In this document: positions 1-33,041 of the stretch, in pieces
Layout: each line of letters opens with the position of its first letter
Numbering within the stretch: the stretch's first letter is position 1
Source of the DNA: Maliponia aquimaris
Lineage (GTDB): Bacteria; Pseudomonadota; Alphaproteobacteria; Rhodobacterales; Rhodobacteraceae
Length of the DNA: 64,000 bases
Direction: 5' to 3'
NCBI RefSeq assembly: GCF_900184945.1
Contig: NZ_FXYF01000009.1
Location: forward strand, 94,174 to 158,173
Translations under genes and position numbers: made by a program
The notes under the pieces: generated by a model
Database searches by the model: none
What the model was told of the DNA's origin: nothing
Seen by the model: only the letters and a program-made list of their open reading frames with translations

Positions 1-693
1 GTCGAGCGTCCAGTCGCCCTTGGCGTCGCGGCCGAAGAGTTGCATCGAGACCACCTGATCGACGATGCCCGGCAACTCGCGCCCGGCCTTGGTGCCCTCC
101 ATCTGCGGCTGCCAGGTCGCCGTGCCGAACTCGTCGGTCACCTTCTCGAGCACTCCGACGAAGATCACCGTCTTGCCGCGGGCGTGCTGCAGGTGCTTCA
201 GCGCCTGGATCACCTCGCGGCCCAGGAGCCCGTAGGCGCCGCGGACATCCGGCTTGCCGGTCCGCTCTGAGAAGGCCTCGGGCTGCTGGCGGGCATAGGC
301 CATGGCCTGCCGCGTCAGGTCGGTGATCGAGTCGACGAAGACGATCCGTTTCCGGGCGAGAAAGTCCTCGATGCCGGTGCCGAGATACTGCTGCTGCAGC
401 CAGGCGTGATACTCGGCGCCGTACCAGGACTTCGGATGCTGGGCCGGATCGTGCCCGCCGATCAGTACGGCGAGGTCGCGGAAATCGGTGAAGCTGCGCA
501 CCGGGATCGAGTCCCCGCGCCAGTCCTGCACCGACTTCATGCCGGCCTCGAGGTCGAGGCAGACCGTCTCCTCGGCGGGCAGCGTCTTCAGGAGCGTCGT
601 CTTGCCGACGCCGGGCGGGCCGAAGATGGCGAGGGACGTCTTGTTCTCGGCAGCCGAGAGCCGTTCGTCGGCGGTGATGATGCGGAAGGCCAT
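1..693 (-). CDS. Phage-type P-loop ATPase (AAA_24 / Sak4-like, RecA-fold), 5' end in window, C-terminus beyond window start
   Basis: Minus-strand ORF starting ATG 693..691 (RBS GGAG upstream), runs off window. N-term MAFRIITADE..SLAIFGPPGVGKTTLLKTLP..VCLDLEAG matches the Walker A layout of prophage AAA_24/Sak4 ATPases. Continues an operon with the two upstream minus-strand genes. Confidence 0.6.
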   Translation of the reverse strand, partial: MAFRIITADERLSAAENKTSLAIFGPPGVGKTTLLKTLPAEETVCLDLEAGMKSVQDWRGDSIPVRSFTDFRDLAVLIGGHDPAQHPKSWYGAEYHAWLQQQYLGTGIEDFLARKRIVFVDSITDLTRQAMAYARQQPEAFSERTGKPDVRGAYGLLGREVIQALKHLQHARGKTVIFVGVLEKVTDEFGTATWQPQMEGTKAGRELPGIVDQVVSMQLFGRDAKGDWTLD

Positions 694-797
694 GGGGTTC
701 TCCGGAAGTTGCGTTCAGGGTGCGCGGCGGCGGGGGTGACCGGGTGCCGAAGGGGAACCTGCCCGGCGTTGCCGACCGGGCGTCCCGCCGCCGCGCG

Positions 798-1319
798 TCA
801 CCGGTCTCGAGCCTCGAGCCGGAAGACAGGTTTGCCGGTGGTCTCGCTGCGCGCGTCCGCGAAGCCCTCGCGCATCGCCGCGGGCCAGGCGCCGAAGCGC
901 CGCTCGGGCACGCGGTAGGCGACCTCGAGATACTCGGTCGGATCGTCGCCGGCGGCGCGGATGCGCTCGGCCATCGCGGCGAGGCGGTCCTGATCCCAGG
1001 AGACCTTCTTCGGCAGGTCGGCGACGATGACGACGCCCTCGTCCTCGACCCGCACGGTGCCGCTGGTCTTGCCCTGCGCGGCCCGCTCGGCCGCGGCGGC
1101 GGCCTCGTAGCGCTGCGCGATGCCGGCCTCGAGCCGGTCCCGCAGCCGCTTCACGCGGGCGGTCTCGGCGAGCGCCGTCGTCTGCAGATCCAGCAGCATC
1201 TCAGGCGGCAGCGCCGCGATGTCGCCGAGGGCGAGACCTTCGAGATCAATGAGGCGGGGGGCATTGTCGGGGTGCGGCATGGCGGGGTCTCCGTTGGAAG
1301 GGAATGGCAAAGCCATCAC
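798..1319 (-). CDS. Hypothetical phage protein (coiled-coil N-terminal region)
   Basis: 173-aa ORF, codon usage typical, in the same minus-strand early operon between the Sak4-like ATPase and upstream genes. I recognise no family. Confidence 0.45.
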   Translation of the reverse strand: MMALPFPSNGDPAMPHPDNAPRLIDLEGLALGDIAALPPEMLLDLQTTALAETARVKRLRDRLEAGIAQRYEAAAAAERAAQGKTSGTVRVEDEGVVIVADLPKKVSWDQDRLAAMAERIRAAGDDPTEYLEVAYRVPERRFGAWPAAMREGFADARSETTGKPVFRLEARDR

Positions 1320-1669
1320 GCGGCGCGCTCTTCGAGGAGCAGCGCCGAGAGCGAGGCGTTGGCGGCTCTGGGTCTGGGCCGGGCGACGGCGATGTAGGCG
1401 AAGCGGTCGGGGCCCACGCGCTCCTGCACGAGGTGGACGAGGCCCTTCTCAAAGGCGCCCAGCGCGGCCTGACCGAGGTCGGCGAGCTGGCGGCGCTCGG
1501 GCTCCGGCAGGGTCGAGATCACCGGCGTGACGTCGATCCCGAGAAAGCCGCGGTGATACTCGATCCGGGCGCCAGCCTCGGCCTGTGCGATCCAGGCGTA
1601 GAGCTCGACATCGGTGAGCTTCGGCGTCGCCACGCGGGCGACGATCGGGGTTGCGGCGACCATCAGCAT
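1316..1669 (-). CDS. Hypothetical phage protein
   Basis: Start taken at internal MLMVAATP (ATG 1669..1667), which overlaps the stop of the AlpA-like gene (ATGCTGA). ATGA overlap with the downstream gene at 1316..1319. Confidence 0.4.
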   Translation of the reverse strand: MLMVAATPIVARVATPKLTDVELYAWIAQAEAGARIEYHRGFLGIDVTPVISTLPEPERRQLADLGQAALGAFEKGLVHLVQERVGPDRFAYIAVARPRPRAANASLSALLLEERAA

Positions 1670-1929
1670 ACCCGTGCGGCCCGCGCGGGGTCCGCGGTCA
1701 GCCGACGGGGCGAATGACCGACGCGCGCGACCGCCTCGCTGATTTTCAGGGCACGCTGCAGCTGGCTCTGCTCGAAGGCTTCGATATCGGCGAGCCGGTA
1801 GAGCACGCGTCCGCCGAGCTTGAGGAAGGCCGGTCCCTGGCCGTTGTAGCGCCAGCGTTCCAGCGTCCGGTGGGAGATCCCCCAGCGCCGGGCCAGCTCC
1901 TTCTGGTTCAGGCAATGCCTCTGCAGCAT
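1663..1929 (-). CDS. AlpA/Xis-family helix-turn-helix DNA-binding protein (excisionase or phage early regulator)
   Basis: MLQRHCLNQKELARRWGISHRTLERWRYNGQGPAFLKLGGRVLYRLADIEAFEQ is a textbook AlpA/MerR-type phage HTH. Start chosen at the second Met (1929). Confidence 0.7.
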   Translation of the reverse strand: MLQRHCLNQKELARRWGISHRTLERWRYNGQGPAFLKLGGRVLYRLADIEAFEQSQLQRALKISEAVARVGHSPRRLTADPARAARVC

Positions 1930-2131
1930 CGGTGTCTCCTCTCGTGTCGTCGTCGAGGAGACAGTGCGCAATTACGGTGTGGGATGTCGTGGGGACTGGC
2001 GGGGGATGCGGAGGGGGATCAGTCGGCCCTTGCGGGACAGGGTTCTGACCGCGGGTGGGGCACCATCATCCCCCACCATCCATCACCCATCCCCCTCCCG
2101 ATCCCACACGGATGGGGCGGAAGGGGATCGG

Positions 2132-2815
2132 TCAGTCGAGATTCAGACGGTAGCCGCCTCGGCGGTCGGACCGGATCAGCTGTCGCCAGTCCTTCTGCGA
2201 CTTGAAGACGTCGGCCATTCGCAGGCTCTTGGAGCCGGCGCGCGACAGGATCGCCTTGCCGTTCTGCCAGGGCGCGCCTGCCTGCACCGCCTCGTGCAGC
2301 GCGCGCACGACTTCCGCCTGGATCGGGCCCAGCTTGAACCGGCATCCGTTGCAGCGGACCTCGAAATAGTCGGCCGAGTGGATGAAGGTGGCTTCCTCCA
2401 TCGGCTGGCCGCCGGGCGAGAACCCGGTCTCGACCTCGAAACGGTCGCGTTCATCGCGCCTTAGCAGCAGGTCGCCGATCATGACGAGGACGGGCTGCGC
2501 ATCGCCCCAGGTCTCCGCGTAGTCGGCGCTCGGCGTCCGAAAACTCGCGAGATGAACCTCACCACACCGGAAGAGCTGGAACACATCGCGGGCGTGGAGA
2601 TCGAGCAGACCGCTATGGTAGCCTTGCTCCCATGGCACCTTGTATGGCTCGCCTCGATCGTCCTCCTCGATGTCGCCGAACTCCATGGGCGCGCCGAACA
2701 CGCGCACGGACAGACGCAGCTTGTCGTTCTCCGCGAGGTAGATCAGGTCGGCCTCGGTGATCTGCCACCGCTCAAGGATCTCGGGGAGCGTGAAGTACAA
2801 TTTGTCGATGTGCAT
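2132..2815 (-). CDS. Hypothetical phage early protein, divergent from the repressor (Cro/antirepressor position)
   Basis: 227-aa ORF; first gene of the leftward operon opposite the CI-like repressor. The N-terminal segment (LPEILERWQITEADLIYLAE) is HTH-like. No family assignment. Confidence 0.5.
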   Translation of the reverse strand: MHIDKLYFTLPEILERWQITEADLIYLAENDKLRLSVRVFGAPMEFGDIEEDDRGEPYKVPWEQGYHSGLLDLHARDVFQLFRCGEVHLASFRTPSADYAETWGDAQPVLVMIGDLLLRRDERDRFEVETGFSPGGQPMEEATFIHSADYFEVRCNGCRFKLGPIQAEVVRALHEAVQAGAPWQNGKAILSRAGSKSLRMADVFKSQKDWRQLIRSDRRGGYRLNLD

Positions 2816-2931
2816 TCACTGCCCTCCGCGCCGATTCCCGTGTAAGATGTTTACCTTCTGTTCTTATTCGCTTGACCGGCTTCGATCAATCCGATTTTAT
2901 CCTATTTCATCCACAGATGGGTGGGGATGAC

Positions 2932-3609
2932 ATGACCGAGCACCACACGCTTTCCGACCGCCTCAGAGCCCGGGCCAACCAGCTCGGCATCAGTCCCGCC
3001 CACGTCGCCGAGATGGCCGGCGTGAACCGTTCGTTCGTCTACGACATCCTCCGTGGCCGTTCAGCCCGCCCTGGTATAGACCGGCTGGCCGAGGTCGCCC
3101 GCGTGCTGAAGGTGGATCGCGACTGGCTGATCCATGGCATCGGCGAGGTGGAAGGGAAGCCCCCCTTCTTGGACAATCCTGACGACGCCTTTGTGGCCAT
3201 CGCCCACGCCACCCCGCGCCCGGCAATGGGCGGCGGCGCGGTCGTGACAGAGGACGGCGACACGCCCGGCCGCGTCTATCACTTCCGCCGCTCCTGGATC
3301 CGGAACAGCCTGAAGGCCAGCCCGTCGCAGCTGCGCATCATGCACGTCGAGGGCGACAGCATGGCGCCGACGCTCCTGAGCGGTGACGCGGTGCTGGTCG
3401 ACATGACCCGCCGCGCGCCCAACCCGCCCGGCATCTTCGTGCTGGACGACGGGATGGGGCTGGTCGCCAAGCGGCTCGAGCACATCCCCAACAGCGACCC
3501 GCCCGGGGTGCGCGTCATCTCCGACAACAAGCACTACCCCGAATACGAAAGAACGGCCGACGAGATCCACATCGTCGGCCGTATCCGCTGGTTCGCACGG
3601 GAGATTTAG
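2932..3609 (+). CDS. Phage CI/LexA-type repressor (XRE HTH + S24 peptidase domain)
   Basis: HTH region (LGISPAHVAEMAGVNRSFVYDILRGR) followed by the S24 signature VEGDSMAPTL with downstream VAKRL lysine region. Start ATG 2932 with RBS GGGGA; alternative ATGs at 2872 and 2917. Confidence 0.8.
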   Translation: MTEHHTLSDRLRARANQLGISPAHVAEMAGVNRSFVYDILRGRSARPGIDRLAEVARVLKVDRDWLIHGIGEVEGKPPFLDNPDDAFVAIAHATPRPAMGGGAVVTEDGDTPGRVYHFRRSWIRNSLKASPSQLRIMHVEGDSMAPTLLSGDAVLVDMTRRAPNPPGIFVLDDGMGLVAKRLEHIPNSDPPGVRVISDNKHYPEYERTADEIHIVGRIRWFAREI

Positions 3610-3611
3610 TA

Positions 3612-4958
3612 GTGGCGGCTGAAGAGGAGTTGGACGATCTTCTCGAGCTGGCGGGCTGCTGCTTTCGGGATGCCATGAGGGCCGTCGATATCGAGGCGTT
3701 CTTCTCCAGACGCGACATCCCACTTGCAGAAGGGACCAGCAAGAAGACGGTTGCCCAGAATACGCTCGCAAGCCTTTCGCGAGCAAAGGCGCTGGATCTG
3801 GTCCTCGAGTTTGCACGAGAACGGCGGAATATCGGCCTGCAGGACAGGGTTTACCTCCTGCAAGACAAGGACCAACCGGAGATCTCTGCGATCACTCGCG
3901 ACCGAGTGGCCGATCGCCTTGGTGCCGGGATCCATGGACAAGGCATTCGTCTGGGCGTGATCGAGGGGCTTTTCGATCTGAGTTCGCCTGCCGACTTCTT
4001 CGATAGCCCCACCAAGATCGAAGAGCTCCGACAACACGCGACTGGCGCGGCCCCGTTGTGGAACGCGAAGGATGTTTTCGAAGCCATCGGGGCAATAAAA
4101 TGTCCTTCGAGGAGGTTCGCGCAGCTGATCGAGACCGCTCTGGATCCTCGGTTTCGCGATGCCGACGAACAGACCATGCTGGCAGCGGACTTGACCCGCA
4201 TCCTGCAACTCGATGGCTACGAGGTTGCTCAGACAGGAGAGGTCTCGGGCCGCGCAACGTTCTCGGTACGCCCCATTCGCCGCGGCGTGGATGGGCGGCC
4301 GAAGAATCTGATCTTCGCGTCCAACGGACCAAAGCCGAGGCTCGGGTTCTCGGATGCGATCGACAACGAAGTCGTCGTGCTAGAGCATGCCGACAGCTGC
4401 CTCGTTTACGAGCGCCCCATCGGCAATGGATTGTCATGGCTCGACCTGGTCCGTTGGTGGATGGATCAGAGAGGGATCGCCGACCTCGCCGAAGCACGCA
4501 CCAGCCTCGGGCGGCGTCTACTTGCCTCGCTTGACGACGGCCCTGAGCAGGAGTTCTTCAAGGCGTACTTCCGCAATTTCGCTGAACGACTTGGAGACCG
4601 GCTGCCGGCGCTCATCCCGCAGGTCTACCTGCACTATGATCCGGAGATCGCGAGGCGTCTCCCTGACAAACGAATTCTGTTCCGGCAGCGCATGGACTTC
4701 CTGGTGCTGTTGCCGGGCCGACAGAGGGTCGTCCTCGAGATTGACGGCAAGCACCACTATGCGAAAGGCGAGCGCGCCGATCCCGGCCTGTACGCGGAAA
4801 TGGTTGCGGCTGATCGCAACCTTCGCCTTCGCGGCTACGAGGTGTTTCGGTTCGGGGGCTCGGAATTCTCTAACCCCAAGGGTTCGATGCAGGAATCTGT
4901 CGACAAGCTTGTGAAGTCATTCTTCGAGGAGCTGTTCGTCGTCCATCGCTTAGGATAG
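3612..4958 (+). CDS. Repressor-coupled two-domain protein: unknown N-terminal domain + C-terminal DUF559/Vsr-like PD-(D/E)xK nuclease-fold domain (candidate defence/exclusion protein)
   Basis: GTG start 2 nt after the repressor stop, with GGGAG RBS. C-terminal region (FRQRMDFLVLLPGRQRVVLEIDGKHHYAKGERADPGLYAEMVAADRNLRLRGYEVFRFGGSEF) has the DUF559 layout. N-terminal ~330 aa unassignable by eye. Confidence 0.6.
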   Translation: MAAEEELDDLLELAGCCFRDAMRAVDIEAFFSRRDIPLAEGTSKKTVAQNTLASLSRAKALDLVLEFARERRNIGLQDRVYLLQDKDQPEISAITRDRVADRLGAGIHGQGIRLGVIEGLFDLSSPADFFDSPTKIEELRQHATGAAPLWNAKDVFEAIGAIKCPSRRFAQLIETALDPRFRDADEQTMLAADLTRILQLDGYEVAQTGEVSGRATFSVRPIRRGVDGRPKNLIFASNGPKPRLGFSDAIDNEVVVLEHADSCLVYERPIGNGLSWLDLVRWWMDQRGIADLAEARTSLGRRLLASLDDGPEQEFFKAYFRNFAERLGDRLPALIPQVYLHYDPEIARRLPDKRILFRQRMDFLVLLPGRQRVVLEIDGKHHYAKGERADPGLYAEMVAADRNLRLRGYEVFRFGGSEFSNPKGSMQESVDKLVKSFFEELFVVHRLG

Positions 4959-5273
4959 CGCATCCCAAGAAGACCGCAGGCTTACGCAGAAGTCCCATAA
5001 GCATCTGAAAGTAATTGTTTTCGGGGCGCGCGCGGATAGCGTTTCTCCCATGCGAAACGCGCCGACATATCCGCGGCTGGGATCGAACCCGCTGCCACCC
5101 GACCAGATGACTCCTGCCGAGCGCCGCGCAGAGTTGTGCGACCTGCTGGCGCTGGGGCTGGTCCGGATGCGACTGCGCGAGCGCGGCGAACCTGCTGACG
5201 AAACTGGAGAAATTCTCCTACACTCTCCGGCCGACCAATGCCGTCATGCAACTCCAACTCACCGGAGAACCGC

Positions 5274-5726
5274 ATGACGACCCACGATCCAATTCCCGCG
5301 CGCCTGGCCGCGCTGAAGACCGCGACGACGCCGGAGCTGAAGGCGCAATGGCGCGACCTGTTCGACAGCGACCCGCCGCCGTTCAACCGCCGCTACCTCG
5401 AGAGCCGGCTGGCCTACCGCATCCAGGAACTGGCCTACGGTGGGCTGAAGCCCGAGACGATCCGGCGGCTGGAGCGGCTGGGCGAGGAACTCGACGGCGG
5501 CGACCGGAAGAAGAGCCGGATCCGCGCGGACGCCATGCCCATCGCCGGCACGCGGCTGATCCGCGAGTGGCAGGGCGTCGAACATGTCGTCACCGTCGCC
5601 GCCGACGGCTTTGAATGGCAGGGGCGGCCCTACAAGTCGCTGTCGGCCATTGCCCGCGCCATCACCGGCACGCGCTGGAACGGATGGGTGTTCTTTGGGC
5701 TGAAGAACCGGAGGGCGCGGACATGA
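5274..5726 (+). CDS. DUF2924 family protein (recombinase-associated)
   Basis: ATG 5274 with GGAGAA RBS; stop overlaps the serine recombinase start (ATGA). The motif set (WRDLF, RRYLESRLAYRIQELAYGGL, IREWQGVEHVVTV) is typical of DUF2924 proteins encoded immediately upstream of large serine recombinases. Confidence 0.6.
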   Translation: MTTHDPIPARLAALKTATTPELKAQWRDLFDSDPPPFNRRYLESRLAYRIQELAYGGLKPETIRRLERLGEELDGGDRKKSRIRADAMPIAGTRLIREWQGVEHVVTVAADGFEWQGRPYKSLSAIARAITGTRWNGWVFFGLKNRRART

Positions 5727-7048
5727 CGAAGGCCCCCTCGAAACCAGGAATGATCCGGAAACAGCGCTGCGCGATCTACACGCGCAAGTCGTCCGAGGAA
5801 GGGCTTGAGCAGGAGTTCAACTCGCTCCACGCCCAGCGCGAGGCCTGCGAAGCATTCATCGCCAGCCAGCGCTCCGAGGGCTGGGTGCAGGTCCGCGATC
5901 AATATGACGACGGCGGGATCTCGGGTGGGACTCTGGAACGGGCCGGCCTGAAGCGACTGCTGGAGGACATCGAGGACGGGCTCGTCGACGTGGTCGTCGT
6001 CTACAAGATCGACCGCCTTAGCCGCTCGCTGGCCGACTTCGCAAAGCTGGTGGAGGTGTTCGACCGTAACGGGGTGACGTTCGTCTCCGTCACCCAGTCG
6101 TTCAACACGACCACGTCGATGGGGCGGCTGACGCTGAACATTCTGCTCTCGTTCGCCCAGTTCGAACGCGAGGTGACGGCCGAGCGCATCCGCGACAAGG
6201 TCGCCGCCAGCCGGAAGAAGGGGATGTGGATGGGAGGCGTCCCGCCCTACGGCTACCGGGTCGAGAACCGGAAGCTGTTGGTCGACGAAGACATCGCCGC
6301 GCGTGTCCGCTGGATCTTCGCCCGCTTCCTCGAGATTGGGTCCTGCACGGAGCTGGCACGAGAGGTTGGCGCACGCGGCATCCGCACGCCGCGCGGGAAC
6401 AGGATCGACAAGAAATACATCTACCGGATGCTCAGCAACCGCGCCTACATCGGCGAGGCGGTCCACAAGGGCGAGAGCTATCCCGGCGAACACGACGCCA
6501 TCATCGACCGCGAGATGTGGGACCGAGTCCACGCCATCCTGCAGGAGAGCCCGCGCAAGCGCGCGGCCCGCACACGCGCCGACACGCCCGCGCTGCTGAA
6601 GGGCCTGTTGTACGGACCCGACGGCGCGGCGTTCTCGCCGACCCATACGCGTAAGGGCGACCGGCTGTACCGCTACTACGTCAGCCAGACGGTGCTGAAA
6701 CACGGCGCCGGGTCCTGCCCGGTCGGCCGCGTACCCGCGGGCGAGATCGAGGCCGCCGTCATCGACCAGCTGCGGGCGGTGTTTCGCCAGCCCGAGATCG
6801 TGGCGGGGACGTGGAAAGCAGCACGCGTCCACGTCGACGACATCACTGAGGCCGACGCCCGCGCGGCCCTGCAGCAGCTCGACCCGTTGTGGGACGAGCT
6901 GTTCCCTGCCGAGCAGGCGCGCATCGTTGCGCTGCTGGTCGAACGCGTCGACATCGGCACGGACGGGCTCAACGTGCGCCTGCGCGTCGATGGCCTCGGC
7001 AGCCTCGCGCGCGAGATGCTGGCCGGCGGAATCGAGGCTGCCGCATGA
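5723..7048 (+). CDS. Large serine recombinase (resolvase/invertase catalytic domain + recombinase domain + C-terminal extension)
   Basis: N-term CAIYTRKSSEEG (catalytic Ser region), VVVYKIDRLSRSL, GVTFVSVTQ, then recombinase-domain motifs (GGVPPYGY, YIYRMLSNRAYIGE). ~441 aa. Confidence 0.85.
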   Translation: MTKAPSKPGMIRKQRCAIYTRKSSEEGLEQEFNSLHAQREACEAFIASQRSEGWVQVRDQYDDGGISGGTLERAGLKRLLEDIEDGLVDVVVVYKIDRLSRSLADFAKLVEVFDRNGVTFVSVTQSFNTTTSMGRLTLNILLSFAQFEREVTAERIRDKVAASRKKGMWMGGVPPYGYRVENRKLLVDEDIAARVRWIFARFLEIGSCTELAREVGARGIRTPRGNRIDKKYIYRMLSNRAYIGEAVHKGESYPGEHDAIIDREMWDRVHAILQESPRKRAARTRADTPALLKGLLYGPDGAAFSPTHTRKGDRLYRYYVSQTVLKHGAGSCPVGRVPAGEIEAAVIDQLRAVFRQPEIVAGTWKAARVHVDDITEADARAALQQLDPLWDELFPAEQARIVALLVERVDIGTDGLNVRLRVDGLGSLAREMLAGGIEAAA

Positions 7049-7434
7049 CCCGAGGGACTCCAATCCCCGAGACCGTGACGCTCCATGTCCCGTTCCGTAT
7101 CGTGAAGCGCGGCGGGCGGAAGGAGATGCAACTGCCTTCGGGAGAGTCGGCCCCCCGTGCGCGTTTCGACAACACCATGATCAAAGCCATAGCGCGTGCA
7201 TTTCGATGGCAGCGGTTGCTCGACTCGGGCGAGTTCGCCACCATTGCCGACTTGGCAGCACACGAACGCATCGCAGCCCCTTACTTGACCCGGCTCCTGC
7301 GTCTCACCCAGCTTTCACCGGAGATTGTCGAGGCCATCCTTGAGGGAAGACAGCCGCCCGACCTGACGCTTGAGTCGCTGCGGGCGCAGTTTCCCATGGA
7401 TTGGAACAGTCAGCGCGCATTGCTGCGACTTTGA
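7045..7434 (+). CDS. Small recombinase-associated DNA-binding (HTH) protein
   Basis: Start overlaps the recombinase stop (ATGA). C-terminal TIADLAAHERIAAPYLTRLLRLTQLSPEIVEAILEGRQPPDLTLESL is an HTH-like segment of the kind that accompanies DUF2924/serine-recombinase modules. Confidence 0.5.
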   Translation: MTRGTPIPETVTLHVPFRIVKRGGRKEMQLPSGESAPRARFDNTMIKAIARAFRWQRLLDSGEFATIADLAAHERIAAPYLTRLLRLTQLSPEIVEAILEGRQPPDLTLESLRAQFPMDWNSQRALLRL

Positions 7435-7531
7435 ATTCCGCAAGCACTTGGTGAACACGCCTGACTCGATGGATGGCTTGTGCTTTTTAGCCAATTTGGC
7501 CAAAGTAAGCCATGCAAGAGCGGAGAGTCAG

Positions 7532-7735
7532 ATGCAGATCCTGACCGCGAAAGACGCGAAGTACGGCTTCGGGCGGCTGATTGATCTCGCCCGAGCCGAG
7601 CCTGTCGCGGTGGCGAAGCATGGACGCCCCGTTGTCGTCGTGCTGGCAGTCGAGGAATACGAGCGGCTGAAGGCGCTGGACAAGCCTGGCATCAGTCCGG
7701 GTGAACAAAACGCAGGAAAGAAAACGAGCGAATGA
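7532..7735 (+). CDS. Phd/YefM-family antitoxin-like protein (orphan; fused into the hsdM operon)
   Basis: MQILTAKDAKYGFGRLIDLARAEPVAVAKHGRPVVVVLAVEEYERLKAL fits the Phd/YefM pattern (M..I...E.........A..GPV.I...G.P..VLLS.EEY.RL). ATG 7532 with GGAGAG RBS; stop overlaps the hsdM ATG. No Doc/YoeB-like partner nearby. Confidence 0.6.
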   Translation: MQILTAKDAKYGFGRLIDLARAEPVAVAKHGRPVVVVLAVEEYERLKALDKPGISPGEQNAGKKTSE

Positions 7736-9834
7736 TTGCAGACCACCTGACCGGAATCGAACAGTTTGGCGCGGACCTATGGAAGATGGCCGACGACCTG
7801 CGGGCCAACTCCGGTCTCGCATCGAACGAGTACTTCATGCCAATCATGGGGCTCCTTTTCCTGCGCCAAGCCACGAACCGCTACTATGCTGCTCTCGCTG
7901 CGATCGAGGCGGACAAGGCCGCCGGCAAGATGCCGGATCGACCGCTGGTCGACGCCGACTTCCGCCGCCGCCGCGCAATGCTGCTGCCCGAGGCGGCACG
8001 TTACGACGTGATCCTCGACATGCCCAAGGGCGGTCAGCTTGGCGCTGCGCTCACCGCCGCCATGGAGGAGGTGGAGAAGCATTTCCCGCCGCTCGCTGGC
8101 CAGTTGCCGAAGGACTACGAGCGCTTCGACGATGACCTGCTCGAAAGCATGATGCGCAAGTTCGACACCGAGGCCCTGCGCAATGCTTCCGGCGACGTCT
8201 TCGGCCGCATCTATGAATACTTCCTCGCCGAGTTCTCCAAGCAAGGCGCGCACGACAACGGCGAATTCTTCACGCCGCCCTCCATCGTCCAGACCATCGT
8301 CAATGTGATCGAGCCAGACCACGGCATCGTTTTCGACCCAGCGTGCGGCTCGGGCGGCATGTTCGTGCAGTCCAGCCACTTCATCGAGGACGCGGGCCAG
8401 GACACGATGAAGCGCGTCACCTTCTACGGCCACGAAAAGAACGAGACGACTGCCAAGCTCGCCCAGATCAACCTGGCTGTTCACGGCTTGCAGGGTACGA
8501 TCCGAGCCGGGAATGAAGCGATCACCTACTACAAGGACCCGCACGAACTCGTCGGCAAGTGCGACTTCGTCATGGCCAATCCGCCCTTCAACGTGGACGA
8601 GGTCGACGCCGACAAGGTCAAGGGTGACAAGCGGCTTCCCTTCGGCCTGCCGGGCGTGAACAAGGCCAAGAAGGTCTCGAACGCCAACTACCTGTGGATG
8701 TCATACTTCTACAGCTACCTGAACGAGAACGGCCGCGCCGGGGTCGTCATGTCCAGCCAGGCATCCAGCGCCGGGCGGGACGAGGCGGTGGTGCGCCAGA
8801 AGCTGGTCGAGACCGGCGCCGTCGACGTGATGATCGATATCCGCGGCAACTTCTTCTACACGCGCACCGTGCCCTGTCAGCTGTGGTTCTTCGACCGGGC
8901 GATGGAGCGTGACCCCGAGCGCGCCGATCACGTCTTGATGCTCGATGCGCGCAACATCTACCGCAAGGTGTCGCGGGCCATCTATGACTTCGCGCCCGAG
9001 CAACAGAAGAATATCGCCGCCATCGTCTGGCTCTATCGCGGCCAGACGGACCGCTTCCTGAAACTCGTCGAAAGCTACATCGCGCAGGCCATCGCCGAGG
9101 GCGAGGCGGCGGCGGAACCGTTGGCAGACTATGAACAGGCGCTCGGCAAGCTGATCGATCTGGTGCAGCCCTTCGTCACCGAAAAGCGCGATCCGGATCC
9201 GCTGGCGGAGACCTGGGGCGAACTGACCGGCGCGCGGGCAACGCTGGCGGGGGATATCGCCGGGTTTGACGCCGAGGTGGCGGCGCGGGCAGCGGGCTGG
9301 CTGGGTGCCGCCCGCGACAATGCCGGGCTGCATACGGCGCGCACCGGGCTGCACCCCATGGCGGACCGCTGTCGTGACATGACCAAGCAGATAGACCTAG
9401 CCGCCAAGCTGGCCGGGCGGGTGGTGGATACAGCCATCAAAGAACTGGACGCCCGCGACCATACCCTCTGGCCCAATGCCGAGGTGACGCGCGCCCGCAA
9501 GGCGCTAGAGGGCGCGCGGGCCGCGGCGGTCGAGGCGCTGCGGTCAGCGCGGTACTTCGTGAAACAGGCCGACTGGCTGCAGGAGCGGTTCCCCGATGCC
9601 GTGCTGCGCGATGTCGAGGGGCTGGTGAAACGAATCAGCCGCGCCGAGATCGCGGCCCAGGACCACAGCCTGACGCCCGGCCGCTATGTCGGCGTGGCAC
9701 CCGAGGAGGTGGACGAGGATTTCGATTTCGAGGAGGCGCTGCGATCGATCCACATCGACCTGAAGGGGCTGAACGAGGAGGCCGAGGCGCTGGCGGCGCG
9801 GATCGCCCGGAACTTTGAGGAGTTGGGGGTGTGA
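7732..9834 (+). CDS. hsdM: Type I restriction-modification system, DNA methyltransferase subunit M
   Basis: 700 aa. N6-adenine MTase motif VMANPPFN, SAM-binding region FDPACGSGGMFVQS, HsdM N-terminal domain. Confidence 0.9.
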   Translation: MIADHLTGIEQFGADLWKMADDLRANSGLASNEYFMPIMGLLFLRQATNRYYAALAAIEADKAAGKMPDRPLVDADFRRRRAMLLPEAARYDVILDMPKGGQLGAALTAAMEEVEKHFPPLAGQLPKDYERFDDDLLESMMRKFDTEALRNASGDVFGRIYEYFLAEFSKQGAHDNGEFFTPPSIVQTIVNVIEPDHGIVFDPACGSGGMFVQSSHFIEDAGQDTMKRVTFYGHEKNETTAKLAQINLAVHGLQGTIRAGNEAITYYKDPHELVGKCDFVMANPPFNVDEVDADKVKGDKRLPFGLPGVNKAKKVSNANYLWMSYFYSYLNENGRAGVVMSSQASSAGRDEAVVRQKLVETGAVDVMIDIRGNFFYTRTVPCQLWFFDRAMERDPERADHVLMLDARNIYRKVSRAIYDFAPEQQKNIAAIVWLYRGQTDRFLKLVESYIAQAIAEGEAAAEPLADYEQALGKLIDLVQPFVTEKRDPDPLAETWGELTGARATLAGDIAGFDAEVAARAAGWLGAARDNAGLHTARTGLHPMADRCRDMTKQIDLAAKLAGRVVDTAIKELDARDHTLWPNAEVTRARKALEGARAAAVEALRSARYFVKQADWLQERFPDAVLRDVEGLVKRISRAEIAAQDHSLTPGRYVGVAPEEVDEDFDFEEALRSIHIDLKGLNEEAEALAARIARNFEELGV

Positions 9835-11051
9835 TGGCACGCACTGCTGAAATCGGCGAGTGCGTGGAAGTCGTCAGCGGCCCCGCGTTCAAGAGCGCGC
9901 AATTCACGGACAATCCTTCCGACGTGCCCTTGATAAAGGGCGAGAACGTCGCCCAAGGCTACATTGCTTGGGACAAGTCGAAGTATTGGCCCGCAAACGA
10001 CACAGAGGGCTACGAACGGTTCGGCCTCGGCGCAGGCGACATCGTCTTAGCAATGGACCGGCCTTGGATCACGGCGGGCTTGAAGTGGGCGCGCCTCAGG
10101 CCACACGATCCGCCGAGCCTGCTAGTGCAACGGGTGGCGCGGCTTCGAGCTAAACCGGGCATGCGCCAAGATTATCTCACCTATGTGATCGCCTCTACGC
10201 AGTTCTCCGATTATGTCCGAAACATCATGGGCGGCACGAATGTCCCGCACATTAGCGGCGCGCAGATCAAGGCGTTCAAGTTCAGGCTACCCGGTGAAAA
10301 CGAGCAGGCGGCAATCGCCGACATCCTCTCCGCCTATGATGACCTGATCGAGAACAACCGGCGACGCATTGCGCTGCTGGAGGAGGCGGCGCTGCTGCTC
10401 TACCGGGAGTGGTTCGTCCACTTCCGCTTCCCCGGCCATGAACACGCCCCTCTCACCGACGGCCTCCCCGAGGGCTGGGAGCGGGTGCCAGCGGCAGAAG
10501 CCTTTGAAGTAAATCCGAAGACCAGCCGAAATGACGACGGTGTAATCCGCTATATACCGATGTCCGCGCTGTCAGAGACAGGAATGGTCATCGACCGCGG
10601 GCCAGTGGAAGACCGCGATAAATCCACGAGCGTCCGGTTCCGGAACGGCGACACTCTGCTCGCCCGCATCACCCCGTGCCTTGAGAATGGCAAAACGGGA
10701 TATGTGCAGCTCCTCGCGGAAGACGAGGTTGCCTGTGGCTCGACCGAATTCATCGTCCTGCGTGGCCGGCGCGTCAGCAACTACATCGTCTATCTGACCG
10801 CGCGACAACATGATTTCAGGGAGAACGCGATTCGAAGCATGATCGGCTCATCGGGAAGGCAGCGCGTCCAGCCGAGCTGCTTCGACCGTTATCTTGTGCC
10901 AATCCCGCCTCAAGTCCTCTCGACGCTGTTTGACGAGGCGGTGGGTGGCATGTTCGCCCAGATCGGCAACCTCGATCAGCAGAACCAGAAGCTCGCCCAA
11001 GCCCGCGACCTCCTCCTGCCGCGCTTGATGAACGGGGAGATCGCGGTGTGA
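9831..11051 (+). CDS. hsdS: Type I restriction-modification system, specificity subunit S (two target-recognition domains)
   Basis: ATGA overlap with hsdM. Two TRD repeats with conserved central and C-terminal coiled regions (LLLPRLMNGEI at C-term). Confidence 0.85.
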   Translation: MMARTAEIGECVEVVSGPAFKSAQFTDNPSDVPLIKGENVAQGYIAWDKSKYWPANDTEGYERFGLGAGDIVLAMDRPWITAGLKWARLRPHDPPSLLVQRVARLRAKPGMRQDYLTYVIASTQFSDYVRNIMGGTNVPHISGAQIKAFKFRLPGENEQAAIADILSAYDDLIENNRRRIALLEEAALLLYREWFVHFRFPGHEHAPLTDGLPEGWERVPAAEAFEVNPKTSRNDDGVIRYIPMSALSETGMVIDRGPVEDRDKSTSVRFRNGDTLLARITPCLENGKTGYVQLLAEDEVACGSTEFIVLRGRRVSNYIVYLTARQHDFRENAIRSMIGSSGRQRVQPSCFDRYLVPIPPQVLSTLFDEAVGGMFAQIGNLDQQNQKLAQARDLLLPRLMNGEIAV

Positions 11052-11839
11052 CAGGCGGCTTCTTCAAAGGTCCCCGCGATTTCGACCCTGCCGCCCTGAA
11101 GGCCGGGTTGGCGGCCATGACAACGCCCCGAGACCGCACGAAGAAGCTGCTCCGCCACACCCTGCTCGACCAGCAGCTCGACGCCATCAAGGCGGTTGTG
11201 CGCAATCACGAAGCCGAGCGGGAGGGGACAGGCCACCAGTTCGAAATTCTGGATACGGACCCGCGCTGGAGAGGGGAGTTCGACGGCGGGCTGGAGGCGC
11301 GGCGTGAGGAGGCGTTCTGGCACCTGACGTTCCAGGCGTCCGCGCACAGCATGTCGGCTGTGGGGATGCTCGCCCCATTCATCGAGTCCCTGTTCGTTGC
11401 GATCTTCGCCGGATTGAGGGACCGGGTGGCGCTTCCGGCCGGCCACCCGCGCTTGACCCTGAACGAGAAAGAGCACTGGAATCCGCGGATCTATCAAGGC
11501 AGTAAGGCTGCCCGGACCGACCTGCTGAAAGGGATCATGCAGTTGTCGGAGGCGACGGGCCTCGAGCCGCACCTGCCACCCCAAACCGAGATGACGCTGG
11601 AAGCGCTTTTCCGCTACCGCAACAACATGTTCCACAACGGCTTTGAGTGGCCTGATGGCAAGATCGAGAGCTTTGCGGCCGAGAGATCGAAATGGCCGGA
11701 AGGCTGGTTCGAGATCGCGGAGAGGAACGACAAGCCATGGCTGTTTTACATGTCGCCACAGTTCTGCACCCACTGCGTGACTACGGTCGACGGCATCATC
11801 GACGGCACTGGCCGGTATTTGAAGGAGCGTGGCGGGTGA
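11048..11839 (+). CDS. HEPN-motif (Rx4H) protein embedded between hsdS and hsdR (candidate abortive-infection RNase-like effector)
   Basis: 263-aa ORF translationally coupled to hsdS (overlap 11048..11051) and 18 nt upstream of hsdR. Contains LFRYRNNMFHNGFEWP with R191-x4-H196 (nt 11618..11635), the HEPN catalytic signature. Confidence 0.5.
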   Translation: MTGGFFKGPRDFDPAALKAGLAAMTTPRDRTKKLLRHTLLDQQLDAIKAVVRNHEAEREGTGHQFEILDTDPRWRGEFDGGLEARREEAFWHLTFQASAHSMSAVGMLAPFIESLFVAIFAGLRDRVALPAGHPRLTLNEKEHWNPRIYQGSKAARTDLLKGIMQLSEATGLEPHLPPQTEMTLEALFRYRNNMFHNGFEWPDGKIESFAAERSKWPEGWFEIAERNDKPWLFYMSPQFCTHCVTTVDGIIDGTGRYLKERGG

Positions 11840-11857
11840 TTTGATGAGGGACATTGG

Positions 11858-14800
11858 ATGGCGGTAACGGGGATAAACAGCGAGGATCGACTGGTTCAGG
11901 CCACCTTCGCCGAGCATCTCGAAACGGTGCTGGGCTGGGAAAACGTCTACGCCTACAATCAGGAGGTGCTCGGGCCGGAGGGCACGCTGGGGCGCAAGGA
12001 CACGACCGAGGCGGTCCTGACGCGCGACCTGCGCGCGGGCCTCCACCGACTCAACCCCGACTTGCCGGAACCAGCCATCGAAGACGCGATCCGCGCGCTG
12101 ACCGTCTACGACGTCAGCCGCTCCATGGTGCAGCACAACCGCGATTTCTACCGAATGCTGCGCGGCGGCGTGCCCGTCACCTATCGCGACGCGCAAGGAC
12201 GCCAGAAATCCGCCCGCGCCAGGGTGATCGACTTCGACAATGCCCCCGGGGCCAACCGCTTCCTCGCCGTGCGCGAGTTGAAGCTGACCGGGATCCGGAC
12301 GCCCAACTACAACCGCCGCGCCGATCTGGTCTGCTTCGTGAACGGCCTGCCGCTGGTCTTCATCGAGCTGAAGGCCGTCTACAAGAACATCCGGGCGGGG
12401 TTCGACGGCAACCTGCGCGACTACATGGACGAAAACGTGATCGCCCATGCGTTCCATCACAACGCCTTCCTGATCGTGTCGAACGGCGACCGCGCCCGCT
12501 ACGGCTCGATCACCAGCGCGTGGGAGCATTTCAACGAATGGAAGCGGCTCGAGGAGGCGGATGAAGGCAGCGTCGATGCGGAGCGTCTGCTGAATGGCAT
12601 GCTGGCGCATGACCGTCTGCTCGATCTGGTCGAAAACTTCATCCTGTTCGACGAAAGCAAGGCGGGCGCCGCGCGCAAGGTGGTGGCGAGGAACCATCAG
12701 GTGCTGGGCGTTAACCGTGCCGTGGCCTCGGTCGCACGGCAGGAGGCGATCAAGGCCGACATCCCGCCCGGAGAACGCCTGCGGCACCGCGTTGTCGAGT
12801 TGCCGCTGGAGCGAAAAGCGCCGACGAAGCGCAGGAAAGGCGAGCAGGCGCTTGTGACGGCGGAAACGGCGCTGCCGTCTTTCATCCCCGAAGGTCCGGT
12901 CGACATAATCGAGCGGGCGCACCCCGACCTCGGCCGGTTGGGCGTGTTCTGGCACACGCAGGGCAGCGGCAAGTCCTATTCCATGGCCTTCTTCGCCGAG
13001 AAGGTGCGGCGCAAGGTGCCGGGTAATTTCACCTTCCTGCTGATGACCGACCGGAACGATCTCGACAGCCAGATCTACAAGACCTTCGTGGGCTGCGGCA
13101 TTGCCGGGAACGATACCCCGCGCGCGGCCTCCGGCGATGATCTGGAACGGATCCTGAAGGAGAACAACCAGTACGTCTTCAGCCTGATCCACAAGTTCAA
13201 CAAGGACGTGGACCCGAAGAAGCCCTACAGCGAGCGCGACGACATCATCGTGATCTCGGACGAGGCGCACCGCACGCAGGCAGGGCGGTTGGCCCGCAAC
13301 ATGCGCCTTGCGCTGCCCAATGCCGCCTTCATCGGCTTCACCGGCACGCCGCTGTTCAAGCAGGACGAAATCACCAAGCGCATCTTCGGCGAATATGTCT
13401 CGCGCTACGACTTCAAGCGATCCGAGGAGGACGGCGCTACCGTCAAGCTGGTCTACGAGAACCGGGGCGAGAAGCTGGGTGTCGCCAAGACGGATCTGAA
13501 CGACCGGATCGCCGAGAAGATCGAGGAGGCGGAACTCGACCCGGATCAGGCGGCGCTCCTCGATAAGCTGCTCGGAAAGGATTACGAGGTCATCACCGCT
13601 GATGAGCGGCTCGACAAGATCGCAGCCGATTTCGTGGACCACTGCGCAACGAGGTGGGAATCCGGAAAATCCCTCTTCGTTTGTATCGACAAGATCACCT
13701 GCGCCCGGATGCACCAGATGATCATACCGCGATGGCAGGCGAAGGCTGCAGAAGTCAGGGCGGCAGCCGATGCCAAGCAAGCCGAGGCGGATACCACGGC
13801 CGACGAAACCATGCGCGCTGTCCTCGCGGAGGAGGCGCAAGTACTGGATGCGCAGGCAACGTGGCTCCAGGAAACCATCGTCGAGATCATCATTAGCGAA
13901 GCGCAGAACGAGGTCGCGGACTTCAAGAAATGGGGGTTCGACATCATCCCGCACCGTGCCCTGATGAAGCAGGGTTTCGATACCGGGAATGGCGAACGGA
14001 TCGATGTCGAGACGGCATTTAAGAACCCCAAGCACCCGTTCCGCGTCGCAATCGTCTGTGCGATGTGGCTGACCGGCTTCGACGTGGAATGCCTGTCGAC
14101 GCTCTATATCGACAAGCCGATGAAGGCCCACACGCTGATGCAGGCCATAGCGCGCGCGAACAGGGTGTATCCTGGAAAGGATTTCGGCCTGATTGTCGAC
14201 TACAATGGAATGCTCGCCAGCCTGCGAGCAGCGCTCGCGCAGTACGCGCTCGGTGATGATGGCACAGGCGGAGAAGAGATCATCGCCCCCATCGAGGAGA
14301 GGGTGCAGGCACTGCTCGAAGCTATCGAGGCGACCGAGGCGCATCTGAGGAGCCTCGGCTTCGACCCAAGCGTTCTGCTCGGCTCGAAGGGCTTTGTGCG
14401 CATCAGGGGTCTGAAGGACGCCGTGGAAGCCGTCTATTCGACGGATGAGTCCAAGCGGCGCTTCGAGATTCTCGCACGGCAGGTGTTCATTCGCTTCAAG
14501 GCGCTGCTGATGGAACCCAGCGCTTGGGCATACGCCGAACGACACGACAACATCGAAGCAATCTACAAGAAGCTGACCGAGCGGCGCGACACGGCTGACG
14601 TGACAGAGCTGTTGAAGGAGTTGCACCGGATCGTCAACGAAGCCATCCGGACGCAGGCGCCAGGAGACGACCAAGCCGAGGGACTGACCTTCGACCTCAG
14701 TCAGATCGATCTTGAGAAGCTGCGTGATGAATTCGCAAAGAAGGTCAGACGCAAAGCGACCGCGCTTCAGGACATTCGAGACATCGTCGAACAGAAACTC

Positions 14801-15283
14801 GCCGAGATGCTGGCGCGCAATCCCGCAAGAATGGACTATCAGGTGAAGTACGAGGCAATCATCGCCGACTACAATCGGGAGAAAGACCGAACCACCATCG
14901 AGGAGACATTCCGTCGACTGGTCGAGCTCGTGAACAGTCTGGACGAGGAACAGAAGCGCGCAACGAAGGAGGGGCTTGGCGAGGATGAACTCGCGCTCTT
15001 CGACCTGCTGCTCAAGGATAACCTGGACAAGACGTCTCGTGAGCGGGTGAAGCAGGCGAGCCGCGACCTCTTGGCATCCATAAAGGCGCGCCTGGCTGAG
15101 CTCGATCGCTTCTGGGAGAAGGAACAGACCAAGGCAGACGTCGAGGTCTTCATCTTGGACGAAGTCTTCGCAAGTTTGCCGTCACCGCCGTTCACGCCCG
15201 ATGAAAAGAAAGCGCTTGCGGCAAGCGTCTACGCCCATGTGTGGCAGCAGGCCGTGAACGGTGGCTTCGCGCAGGCGGCCTAG
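11858..15283 (+). CDS. hsdR: Type I restriction enzyme, R subunit (helicase/endonuclease)
   Basis: 1141 aa. SF2 helicase motifs (VFWHTQGSGKS Walker A, VISDEAHRTQ DEAH box), HsdR N-terminal nuclease region, long coiled-coil C-terminal extension. Confidence 0.9.
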   Translation: MAVTGINSEDRLVQATFAEHLETVLGWENVYAYNQEVLGPEGTLGRKDTTEAVLTRDLRAGLHRLNPDLPEPAIEDAIRALTVYDVSRSMVQHNRDFYRMLRGGVPVTYRDAQGRQKSARARVIDFDNAPGANRFLAVRELKLTGIRTPNYNRRADLVCFVNGLPLVFIELKAVYKNIRAGFDGNLRDYMDENVIAHAFHHNAFLIVSNGDRARYGSITSAWEHFNEWKRLEEADEGSVDAERLLNGMLAHDRLLDLVENFILFDESKAGAARKVVARNHQVLGVNRAVASVARQEAIKADIPPGERLRHRVVELPLERKAPTKRRKGEQALVTAETALPSFIPEGPVDIIERAHPDLGRLGVFWHTQGSGKSYSMAFFAEKVRRKVPGNFTFLLMTDRNDLDSQIYKTFVGCGIAGNDTPRAASGDDLERILKENNQYVFSLIHKFNKDVDPKKPYSERDDIIVISDEAHRTQAGRLARNMRLALPNAAFIGFTGTPLFKQDEITKRIFGEYVSRYDFKRSEEDGATVKLVYENRGEKLGVAKTDLNDRIAEKIEEAELDPDQAALLDKLLGKDYEVITADERLDKIAADFVDHCATRWESGKSLFVCIDKITCARMHQMIIPRWQAKAAEVRAAADAKQAEADTTADETMRAVLAEEAQVLDAQATWLQETIVEIIISEAQNEVADFKKWGFDIIPHRALMKQGFDTGNGERIDVETAFKNPKHPFRVAIVCAMWLTGFDVECLSTLYIDKPMKAHTLMQAIARANRVYPGKDFGLIVDYNGMLASLRAALAQYALGDDGTGGEEIIAPIEERVQALLEAIEATEAHLRSLGFDPSVLLGSKGFVRIRGLKDAVEAVYSTDESKRRFEILARQVFIRFKALLMEPSAWAYAERHDNIEAIYKKLTERRDTADVTELLKELHRIVNEAIRTQAPGDDQAEGLTFDLSQIDLEKLRDEFAKKVRRKATALQDIRDIVEQKLAEMLARNPARMDYQVKYEAIIADYNREKDRTTIEETFRRLVELVNSLDEEQKRATKEGLGEDELALFDLLLKDNLDKTSRERVKQASRDLLASIKARLAELDRFWEKEQTKADVEVFILDEVFASLPSPPFTPDEKKALAASVYAHVWQQAVNGGFAQAA

Positions 15284-15561
15284 GGCCGTTCGCTGATCGT
15301 TCGATCCGGGTTCCAGCGGCTTAGCGAACGGAACTGCGAACCCCGCCCAGTGAGCCCCCACTCTAAGCCTAATGATTTCAGTAGCATGGCGCTCTGAACC
15401 GAACCTCGCGCGGTTAATAGGTCCGGAGAATATTGGCCCTGAGAGACTGCTTCCGAGGCTCTTGGCACCGGGGCCGGTTAACTGCCCGTCCCGCATAACC
15501 CTCGAAAACAACGGGAAAATCTGGCCGCATCCGGATCGGGAGAACGCTTTCGCGAGGGCAA

Positions 15562-15652
15562 GTGGCGGAGACGAAGGGATTCGAACCCTCGAGACGGTTT
15601 CCCGTCTGCACCCTTAGCAGGGGTGTGCCTTCGACCACTCGGCCACGTCTCC
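15562..15652 (-). tRNA. tRNA-Ser (anticodon GCT)
   Basis: RC reads GGAGACG-TG-GCCGAGTGGTCGAAGGCA-CACCC-CTGCTAA-GGGTG-long variable arm-GAGGG-TTCGAAT-CCCTT-CGTCTCC-G-CCA. 3-bp D-stem and long extra arm typical of Ser; CCA encoded. Confidence 0.85.
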
Positions 15653-33037: not shown

Positions 33038-33041
33038 GGTG

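Follow-up and report, generated by a model that had tools for sequence, protein, structure and literature searches.

The 64,000-nucleotide stretch of Maliponia aquimaris DNA that was analysed here (contig NZ_FXYF01000009.1; hereafter, the window) carries a type I restriction-modification (R-M) operon, and our subject is the small gene at its head, which encodes a protein of the Phd/YefM antitoxin type. This open reading frame (ORF; 7532-7735, + strand) begins with the ATG at 7532 and specifies a 67-residue product, MQILTAKDAKYGFGRL...KKTSE (in full, MQILTAKDAKYGFGRLIDLARAEPVAVAKHGRPVVVVLAVEEYERLKALDKPGISPGEQNAGKKTSE). A Shine-Dalgarno sequence, GGAGAG, can be read at 7522-7527 on the + strand, and GGGGAG or GGAGAG is kept at this place in other loci. 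As the original prediction had stated, the TGA of the Phd-like gene (7733-7735) overlaps the ATG of hsdM (7732-7734) within the tetranucleotide ATGA (7732-7735). On the same strand follow hsdM itself (7732-9834; 700 residues, with Pfam matches to HsdM_N and N6_Mtase up to residue 446 and a C-terminal extension of ~250 residues), hsdS (9831-11051; a 406-residue specificity subunit matching Methylase_S), an embedded gene for a 263-residue HEPN-like protein without a family match (11048-11839), and hsdR (11858-15283; a 1141-residue restriction subunit matching HSDR_N, SWI2_SNF2, T1R_D3-like and T1RH-like_C). These genes overlap or sit 18 nt apart, in the order phd-hsdM-hsdS-HEPN-hsdR, and the whole unit occupies 7532-15283 on the + strand. 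No Doc-, YoeB- or RelE-like gene follows the Phd-like gene in the window.

The family membership of the product is clear at the level of profiles. Pfam PF02604 (PhdYeFM_antitox) matches residues 1-50 with E 2.8e-12 and 46.6 bits (cut-off, 29.8), and the NCBIfam model TIGR01552 (phd_fam) matches the 67-residue protein within the same residues with 32.6 bits (cut-off, 20.8). PF02604 was the only Pfam family found for this protein, with no helix-turn-helix (HTH) family at E < 0.01 and no WYL domain, and no second Phd copy was found in the window. Among the PADLOC models, none matches the Phd-like protein, the embedded protein, or the 129-residue and AbiJ-like proteins encoded upstream. Solved Phd/YefM proteins have an alpha/beta fold with the element order beta-alpha-alpha-beta-beta-alpha. 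The AlphaFold2 monomer model of the Phd-like protein is of low confidence (predicted local distance difference test [pLDDT], 61), placing strands at residues 3-5, 23-29 and 32-38 and helices at residues 6-10 and 40-50. The top Foldseek matches, to YefM structures 3d55 and 7v5y, are non-significant (E ~0.4), and a sequence search of the PDB returned a single weak match, 2odk (E 0.11). Since neither the structure search nor the PDB search is significant, the assignment to the Phd family rests on the profile hidden Markov models.

The gene falls into two parts. Codons 1-50 (7532-7681, + strand) encode the conserved N-terminal domain, which is of the dimerisation and DNA-binding type, and codons 51-67 with the stop codon (7682-7735, + strand) encode a variable tail that is specific to the class of cargo genes. 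The last 10-20 residues differ by R-M class and are of low complexity, rich in proline, glycine and charged residues, and residues 53-67 are predicted to be disordered (pLDDT < 50). The C-terminal segment with which canonical relatives bind their toxins is absent from the conserved part of the protein.

To place the gene among its relatives, one genome per species was scanned with the Phd-like protein, yielding 80 loci; their genes were predicted with a greedy rule that takes the longest ORF, and the names come from similarity to representatives checked against Pfam. These loci were located via the Phd-like protein itself and thus give no measure of the share of R-M systems that are led by such a gene. 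Databases hold more than 3,000 relatives, and the loci lie in Alphaproteobacteria, Acidobacteriota, Gemmatimonadota, Binatia, and some Beta- and Gammaproteobacteria; the protein of Paracoccus marinaquae (locus L010) is 100% identical to that of the window. In this survey, conservation is limited to residues 1-50, where 28 columns are invariant. Over codons 1-50, the mean proportion of synonymous differences (pS) is 0.59 and that of nonsynonymous differences (pN) is 0.07, giving a pN/pS of 0.12 (78 homologues, 3003 pairs). By these values, the loci are both old and independent, and purifying selection acts strongly on the protein.

A toxin gene is missing throughout the close family. At least 1.5 kb of sequence is available downstream in 74 loci, and in none of these does a toxin-sized ORF lie beside the Phd-like gene, fragments of hsdR or hsdM aside. 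The 210-residue ORFs that follow it in two loci (L044 and L054) share N-terminal sequence with the EcoEI-type HsdR of L042 and are read, on that similarity, as hsdR fragments, and a 146-residue ORF in L077 resembles the HsdR-like N-terminus of L076. Homologues at ≤ ~50% identity are longer (86 and 104 residues, versus 60-72 in the close family) and are then followed by RelE/ParE toxin genes. Because only these longer, distant relatives precede toxins, the sequences identify the close family as a toxin-less offshoot of ordinary Phd-type antitoxins. The original prediction had weighed the possibility that homologues are always followed by a canonical toxin; this is true only at ≤ ~50% identity and among the longer proteins, and its description of an orphan Phd/YefM-like gene agrees with the profile matches, the missing toxin and the pN/pS. 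By its profile, the protein is a member of the Phd/YefM family, and we consider that it is not to be annotated as a functioning antitoxin, because two defining features of type II antitoxins, the toxin-binding tail and the toxin gene, both fail.

What follows the Phd-like gene instead is, almost without exception, a defence operon. Same-strand restriction-type methyltransferase or helicase genes lie within 10 kb in 71 of the same 74 loci, and in 63 of them these genes begin within 700 nt. The first gene among those 63 is HsdM-like in 33 cases, an EcoEI-type hsdR in 24 and a DEAD/MZB helicase gene (1200-1737 residues) in three, and single loci have an SNF2/NOV_C helicase gene followed by a DUF1156 methylase gene, a PLD-SNF2 gene followed by an Eco57I-type methylase gene, or a ResIII-type gene. 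The HsdM-like first genes encode proteins of ~500, 600, 700 or 820 residues which, outside the class of the window, are 21-35% identical to the window HsdM. Three database relatives are encoded at nine genomic places, each with a Phd-like gene, the 4-nt overlap, a 700-704-residue HsdM, HsdS, a variable embedded gene and a 1141-residue HsdR, and with unrelated flanks made up of prophage, recombinase or Tn7-like genes. In this class, which we call class A, the overlap is retained in the loci whose hsdM is intact. Among short plasmid homologues (67-71% identical), one in Roseomonas precedes a bacteriophage exclusion (BREX-3) operon, one on pSymB of S. meliloti precedes a type I system, and one in Ketogulonicigenium precedes a type I system in which AAA and HNH genes are embedded. 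Most IMG/VR contigs with enough downstream sequence show the same layout of Phd-like gene and defence operon. The kinds of operon so led are therefore type I systems in three gene orders (the majority), type III-like systems, helicase/methylase systems and BREX-3, so that the recurrence before hsdM for which the original prediction proposed a survey is borne out and extends to hsdR-first and other operons. Residues 1-50 remain ~80-94% identical before partners that are only 21-35% identical or are unrelated, a pattern better explained by a conserved DNA target of the Phd-like protein than by a partner protein.

A candidate for such a target lies directly upstream of the gene. The original prediction had pointed to the low-GC leader with its inverted repeat (7435-7531) as the likely operon promoter. 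On the + strand, this leader contains a -35-like hexamer, TTGTGC (7478-7483; family consensus TTGC), whose counterpart "Ttg" is conserved 10-11 nt upstream of the palindrome among 75 distinct upstream blocks and whose promoter role we propose from that conservation. The palindrome, a putative 13-bp operator, is AGCCAATTTGGCC (7489-7501; family consensus GGCCAAnTTGGCC), and it is abutted by an A-rich -10-like element, AAAGTA (7502-7507, + strand; consensus AAAAnT), which was recognised from a position-frequency profile and is assigned its probable role from the 17-18-nt spacing. The palindrome thus occupies the spacer between the two elements. The consensus of the whole block reads T-T-G-(C), ~6 nt, GGCCAAATTGGCC, AAAAnT, ~20 nt, GGGGAG, ATG, and the DNA further upstream is unrelated between operon classes. 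Alternatively, the site can be viewed as two adjacent 8-bp palindromes of the form TTGG(n)CCAA, TTAGCCAA (7487-7494) and TTGGCCAA (7496-7503), that lie one helical turn apart.

In 77 of 81 loci, the palindrome, with up to two mismatches allowed, starts between -49 and -42 relative to the ATG. Its occurrence goes with the Phd-like gene and not with the recombinase or the 129-residue gene that may lie upstream (25 and 27 of 64 loci, respectively). Within the window alone, it is non-significant (11 matches with at most two mismatches versus 4.5 expected), and its weight comes from the conservation at a fixed distance from the ATG. One other copy with a single mismatch, GGCGAAATTGGCC, is found at 16202-16214, outside the island and beyond tRNA-Ser, with no Phd-like gene nearby; this copy is probably there by chance. 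The low-GC leader matches no known RNA element, as an Rfam scan of 7300-7800 gave nothing. The promoter suggested by the original prediction is a putative one, assigned from the conserved block of palindrome, -35-like and -10-like elements; a strict sigma-70 scan is empty (see below).

The protein and the palindrome also change together. Proteins with AKDAKYGFGRL are accompanied by GGCCAAnTTGGCC, and proteins with ARDAKHQFGLL by GGTCACnGTGACC. The latter form a divergent subgroup (60-72% identical) of ten IMG/VR loci (L116-L122, L126, L128 and L129) in which ARDAKHQFGLLIDT replaces AKDAKYGFGRLIDL and the perfect palindrome GGTCACnGTGACC, or a site much like it, lies ~31 nt ahead of the ATG. 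An HsdM-like match follows in this subgroup, as an 824-828-residue ORF overlapping the Phd-like stop in the two loci whose ORFs were listed. Proteins intermediate between the two forms carry intermediate sites, e.g., GGCCATTTTGGCC and AGCCATTATGGAC. In a separate case, two Phd-like genes with a shared operator variant, GGCCAAACTGGCC, were found on two contigs (L075 and L087) of the Gemmatimonadota metagenome-assembled genome RHO3_bin_72; to judge by the common site, copies in one cell, as in this genome, could cross-regulate.

Phd and YefM each bind palindromes in their own promoter and thereby repress it. We consider it probable that the Phd-like protein is a toxin-less Phd domain exapted as the autorepressor of a defence-operon promoter. 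A Phd-like dimer would sit on AGCCAATTTGGCC (7489-7501; GGCCAAnTTGGCC in the family), inside the spacer that separates the -35-like from the -10-like element; no other promoter-like block is recognisable before the operon. Because the palindrome fills this spacer, the bound dimer would be expected to autorepress a transcript running from its own gene through hsdM-hsdS-HEPN-hsdR, and, in class A, translation of the Phd-like gene would be coupled to that of hsdM through the ATGA overlap. Since the leader gene would negatively autoregulate, expression should surge when the operon enters a naive cell and then settle at a low, buffered level. ClpXP and Lon degrade Phd and YefM, which are typically unstable proteins with disordered tails. 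If the Phd-like protein with its disordered tail is likewise short-lived, a block of host translation, such as a phage may impose, would be expected to de-repress the operon. The original prediction had offered, as one of three readings, a Phd protein retained as a transcriptional autoregulator of the R-M operon in the manner of C proteins, and the comparative data favour that reading.

Several points weigh against such an autorepressor. We infer DNA binding, repression, the operon structure with its co-transcription, and the lability of the protein, all four from sequence comparison. The monomer model is poor and its best Foldseek matches, although to YefM, are those non-significant ones given above. 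A strict sigma-70 scan of 7000-15800 gave no promoter, and therefore the promoter assignment rests on conservation. In addition, a repressor at the head of the operon lowers the modification and restriction subunits together, so that methylation before restriction on establishment is unexplained by the repressor alone. Near-identical R-M operons in Phaeomarinobacter and Roseibium (L097-L099) do without the Phd-like gene, which is hence accessory. Lastly, ~40% of the loci are contiguous with a serine-recombinase backbone, and some of the conservation may reflect this element and not the cargo.

The last point calls for a description of the island in which the operon lies. Upstream of the Phd-like gene, the window carries an S24-peptidase/HTH gene (2872-3609), an AbiJ-like gene (3612-4958), a DUF2924 gene (5238-5726), a large serine recombinase gene (5615-7048, + strand; Pfam Resolvase, Recombinase and Zn_ribbon_recom) and the 129-residue ParB-HTH-like gene (7045-7434, + strand; a weak ParB match). 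Downstream, tRNA-Ser(GCT) lies on the - strand 280 nt after hsdR (15563-15652) and is the probable right end of the island, with the housekeeping genes ychF and MatE from 17282 onwards. No convincing direct repeats that could serve as island ends were found within 1-16000. When the operon was compared with plasmids by megablast, the recombinase part alone matched (83%). In ten loci with several types of cargo (window 5238-7681, L018, L032, L038, L042, L051, L055, L057, L078 and L081), the DNA is 75-90% identical from the start of the recombinase gene through the promoter-like block and codon 50 of the Phd-like gene, and is random thereafter. The homology breaks exactly at the end of codon 50; no nucleotides are conserved to the right of it, and there is no evidence of an attachment (att)-like site at this junction between backbone and cargo. 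In L023 (10196-10290), the Phd-like stop is directly followed by ATGATTGCTGACCACCTGACAGGC, which corresponds to the opening codons of the window's class-A hsdM, and an unrelated gene for a 1723-residue DEAD/MZB helicase comes after this remnant, which, from the match, looks like the scar of a cargo replacement. The alignments thus identify the Phd-like gene as the last backbone gene of these recombinase elements, behind which cargo is replaced, and part of its distribution reflects the recombinase element.

These observations allow a wider reading, which we regard as unlikely though not negligible, in which the operator and residues 1-50 of the Phd-like protein form a standardised, horizontally shared control cassette. 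The cassette would be a conserved edge of serine-recombinase islands, would also occur free of them, and would have unrelated defence cargos exchanged behind it. Protein and operator are so nearly identical from locus to locus that a single labile repressor would control every copy within a cell, and the defence regulon would be switched on by a phage-imposed block of translation. If this were true, the logic of toxin-antitoxin pairs would live on here without a toxin, an entire defence operon having taken the place of the "toxin".

The same data can be read without any regulation of the cargo, and of the rival explanations this one survives best, although we judge it distinctly improbable. 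Here, the Phd-like gene would belong to the mobile-element backbone and would regulate integration, excision or maintenance of the serine-recombinase island, or just mark its conserved edge, the cargo being adjacent by position. The recombinase gene upstream in 25 of 64 loci and the 129-residue gene in 27 of 64, the unbroken identity up to codon 50 across cargo types, the cargo-specific tails and the scar in L023 all speak for it. Nevertheless, the palindrome, the Phd-like gene and the defence operon are also present where the recombinase is missing, in 39 of the 64 loci and at the three plasmid loci. The Phd-like gene always points into the defence operon and abuts or overlaps it, and the conserved promoter block belongs to the Phd-like gene, being ~90 nt downstream of the 129-residue gene. 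Moreover, the two explanations are partly compatible, as the backbone could supply a regulated promoter to any cargo.

An action on proteins instead of DNA is very unlikely in our estimate. R-M systems behave as addiction modules, and the Phd-like protein could on that ground be an "antitoxin" for the restriction enzyme, inhibiting the restriction complex, chaperoning it or helping to assemble it; the translational coupling to hsdM in class A would suit such a role. Against it stands the near constancy of the N-terminal domain (~80-94% identity) before HsdM proteins of four lengths, two kinds of HsdR, SNF2, PLD and DEAD helicases, and BrxF of BREX-3. These loci have no common protein partner, and the sole other feature conserved among them is a DNA palindrome.

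There is equally little to recommend the view, to which we assign a very low probability, that the protein is decaying, as the relic of a former Phd-toxin pair, or that it serves anti-addiction by neutralising the toxins of incoming elements. Its nearest toxin-associated relatives are indeed members of Phd-RelE/ParE pairs, at ~50% identity. Strong purifying selection and the spread over several phyla exclude decay, however, so that the word "relic" used in the original prediction has to be dropped, and the loss of the toxin-binding C-terminal segment speaks against the anti-addiction module that was also suggested there, for which no positive evidence emerged. Both versions leave the linkage to defence operons and the conserved operator unexplained.

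The embedded protein (11048-11839) was the subject of the remaining suggestion, that the Phd-like protein is its antitoxin. The HEPN motif noted in the original prediction is well supported: R191, N192 and H196 (R-x4-H) show little or no variation among 38 homologues, and the structure model is confident (pLDDT, 89.9) with a HEPN-like fold, so the 263-residue protein looks like a HEPN domain. It has no visible MNT-type partner and shares an operon with the Phd-like gene in the window and 13 surveyed loci; the two would then form a toxin-antitoxin system split within one operon. This pairing is nonetheless the least probable of all the explanations and fails because each gene occurs without the other: the Phd-like gene is found without the embedded gene in L003 (where a 424-residue gene takes its place), in L022 and L028 (where there is none) and in all other R-M classes, while the embedded gene is found in L097-L099, whose HsdM and HsdR are 81-87% identical (HsdM, 81-86%) to those of the window, with no Phd-like sequence and no palindrome, as well as outside any R-M operon in Chloroflexi (L095); the would-be toxin-binding tail, furthermore, is unconserved. 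The embedded gene is best described as cargo that is independent of the Phd-like gene.

An autorepressor in this position has precedents. The regulation of defence systems has become a subject of study only lately, and type I R-M systems were long thought to be controlled only after translation. The closest parallel is RptR (RMS-proximal transcriptional regulator), described in 2025 from enteropathogenic Escherichia coli, a 79-residue repressor whose gene opens a type I R-M island; the operon, rptR-hsdM-hsdS-darTG-hsdR, has DarTG2 between hsdS and hsdR (PMC12255303). The site of RptR, the palindrome TAGCTA, comes in two or three copies, and by binding such palindromes over the -10 box RptR represses the promoter of its own gene; the protein and its site are conserved across many genomes, type I R-M being the commonest neighbour (54 of 117), and hsdM transcripts rise upon phage infection (PMC12255303). 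The window operon resembles this system in its small leader protein (67 versus 79 residues), its accessory gene between hsdS and hsdR, and the conservation of a leader protein together with short palindromes at the core promoter, regulator and operator here being putative. The two differ in structure, as far as a comparison of descriptions allows, since RptR is all-alpha (four helices), forms an HTH/bZIP-like dimer and has no close PDB homologue (PMC12255303), whereas the window protein matches the alpha/beta Phd/YefM family. Also, none of TAGCTA, TAGATA, TATCTA or TATATA occurs in 7435-7531, which has the 13-bp palindrome of the GGCCAAnTTGGCC type instead. RptR is found mainly in Gammaproteobacteria (PMC12255303), as opposed to mainly Alphaproteobacteria and several other phyla for the Phd-like family, and RptR has been tested experimentally, whereas the role of the Phd-like protein is proposed from comparing sequences.

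Other leader proteins share parts of this picture. C proteins are small autoregulators that head type II R-M genes, have palindromic operators and are thought to time or limit restriction (PMC12707154, PMC12255303), and the Phd-like gene is likewise a small R-M leader gene with a palindrome in what appears to be its own promoter. Unlike the Phd-like protein, for which no HTH match was found, C proteins have an HTH of the Xre/lambda-cI type and usually precede the endonuclease gene; the Phd-like gene precedes hsdM in the window, where hsdR is last, and lies directly before an EcoEI-type hsdR in 24 of the 74 loci. C proteins activate at low and repress at high concentration, whereas for the Phd-like protein we propose repression alone. 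The BrxR/CapW regulators with WYL domains lie upstream of many defence systems and islands (PMC9122601, PMC9122589) and are, in the same way, a generic "defence leader" and not a subunit of one system. They are, however, large wHTH-WYL (winged HTH-WYL) proteins with a ligand-sensing domain, in contrast to a single 50-residue domain without a sensor, and there is no sequence relationship. With canonical Phd/YefM antitoxins (Phd-Doc, YefM-YoeB and the antitoxins of RelE/ParE), the Phd-like protein shares a homologous N-terminal domain, the first place in the operon, the overlap with the next gene and a promoter palindrome. It differs from them in the missing toxin gene and conserved toxin-binding region, its shorter length (60-72 versus 86-104 residues) and the large R-M or defence gene that comes next, and conditional cooperativity with a toxin is impossible for it. 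The role of a defence-operon-proximal autorepressor thus has precedents, and the structural family differs from those of RptR, C proteins and BrxR. In a full-text literature search, no R-M or BREX operon was found described as led by a Phd/YefM-like protein; an earlier description is possible, as this search left most subscription journals uncovered.

If the proposed autorepression is true, the Phd-like proteins would be a second regulator family of type I R-M operons, structurally unrelated to RptR, the first dedicated repressor, and they would have a wider reach, covering at least six first-gene types of methylation-based defence operon, as well as BREX-3, in several phyla. They would also be a clean example of an antitoxin DNA-binding domain that was exapted after loss of the toxin. 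The two forms of the site, with GGCCAA and GGTCAC half-sites, offer a natural specificity swap. In serine-recombinase islands, a regulated promoter encoded by the backbone would drive interchangeable defence cargo. As a practical matter, GGCCAAnTTGGCC followed by a gene for a Phd-like protein of 60-70 residues may serve as a flag for new defence cargo.

Some further features of these operons and of the window deserve mention. HsdM residues ~447-700 (9070-9834 in the window) have no Pfam match, and residues 552-635 give a faint match to the NCBIfam model "Saro_0803 family transcriptional regulator". Extra genes were seen inside Phd-led type I operons of other loci, namely an AAA_13 ATPase gene (L040:14649-15788), a gene for an M78-peptidase-like protein (L029:15732-16637), a DUF4411 gene (L051:14447-14953), and AAA ATPase and HNH endonuclease genes (L092:12449-14393). 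On the island of the window, the S24-peptidase/HTH gene, of the LexA or CI type, is immediately followed by the gene for a 448-residue protein with AbiJ N-terminal domain 3, and the pair (2872-4958) may be a second, damage-responsive defence module. Finally, ARAGORN reported an odd tRNA-like gene with a two-base "anticodon" (tt) at 33041-33114 on the - strand, adjoining tRNA-Asn (32963-33037).

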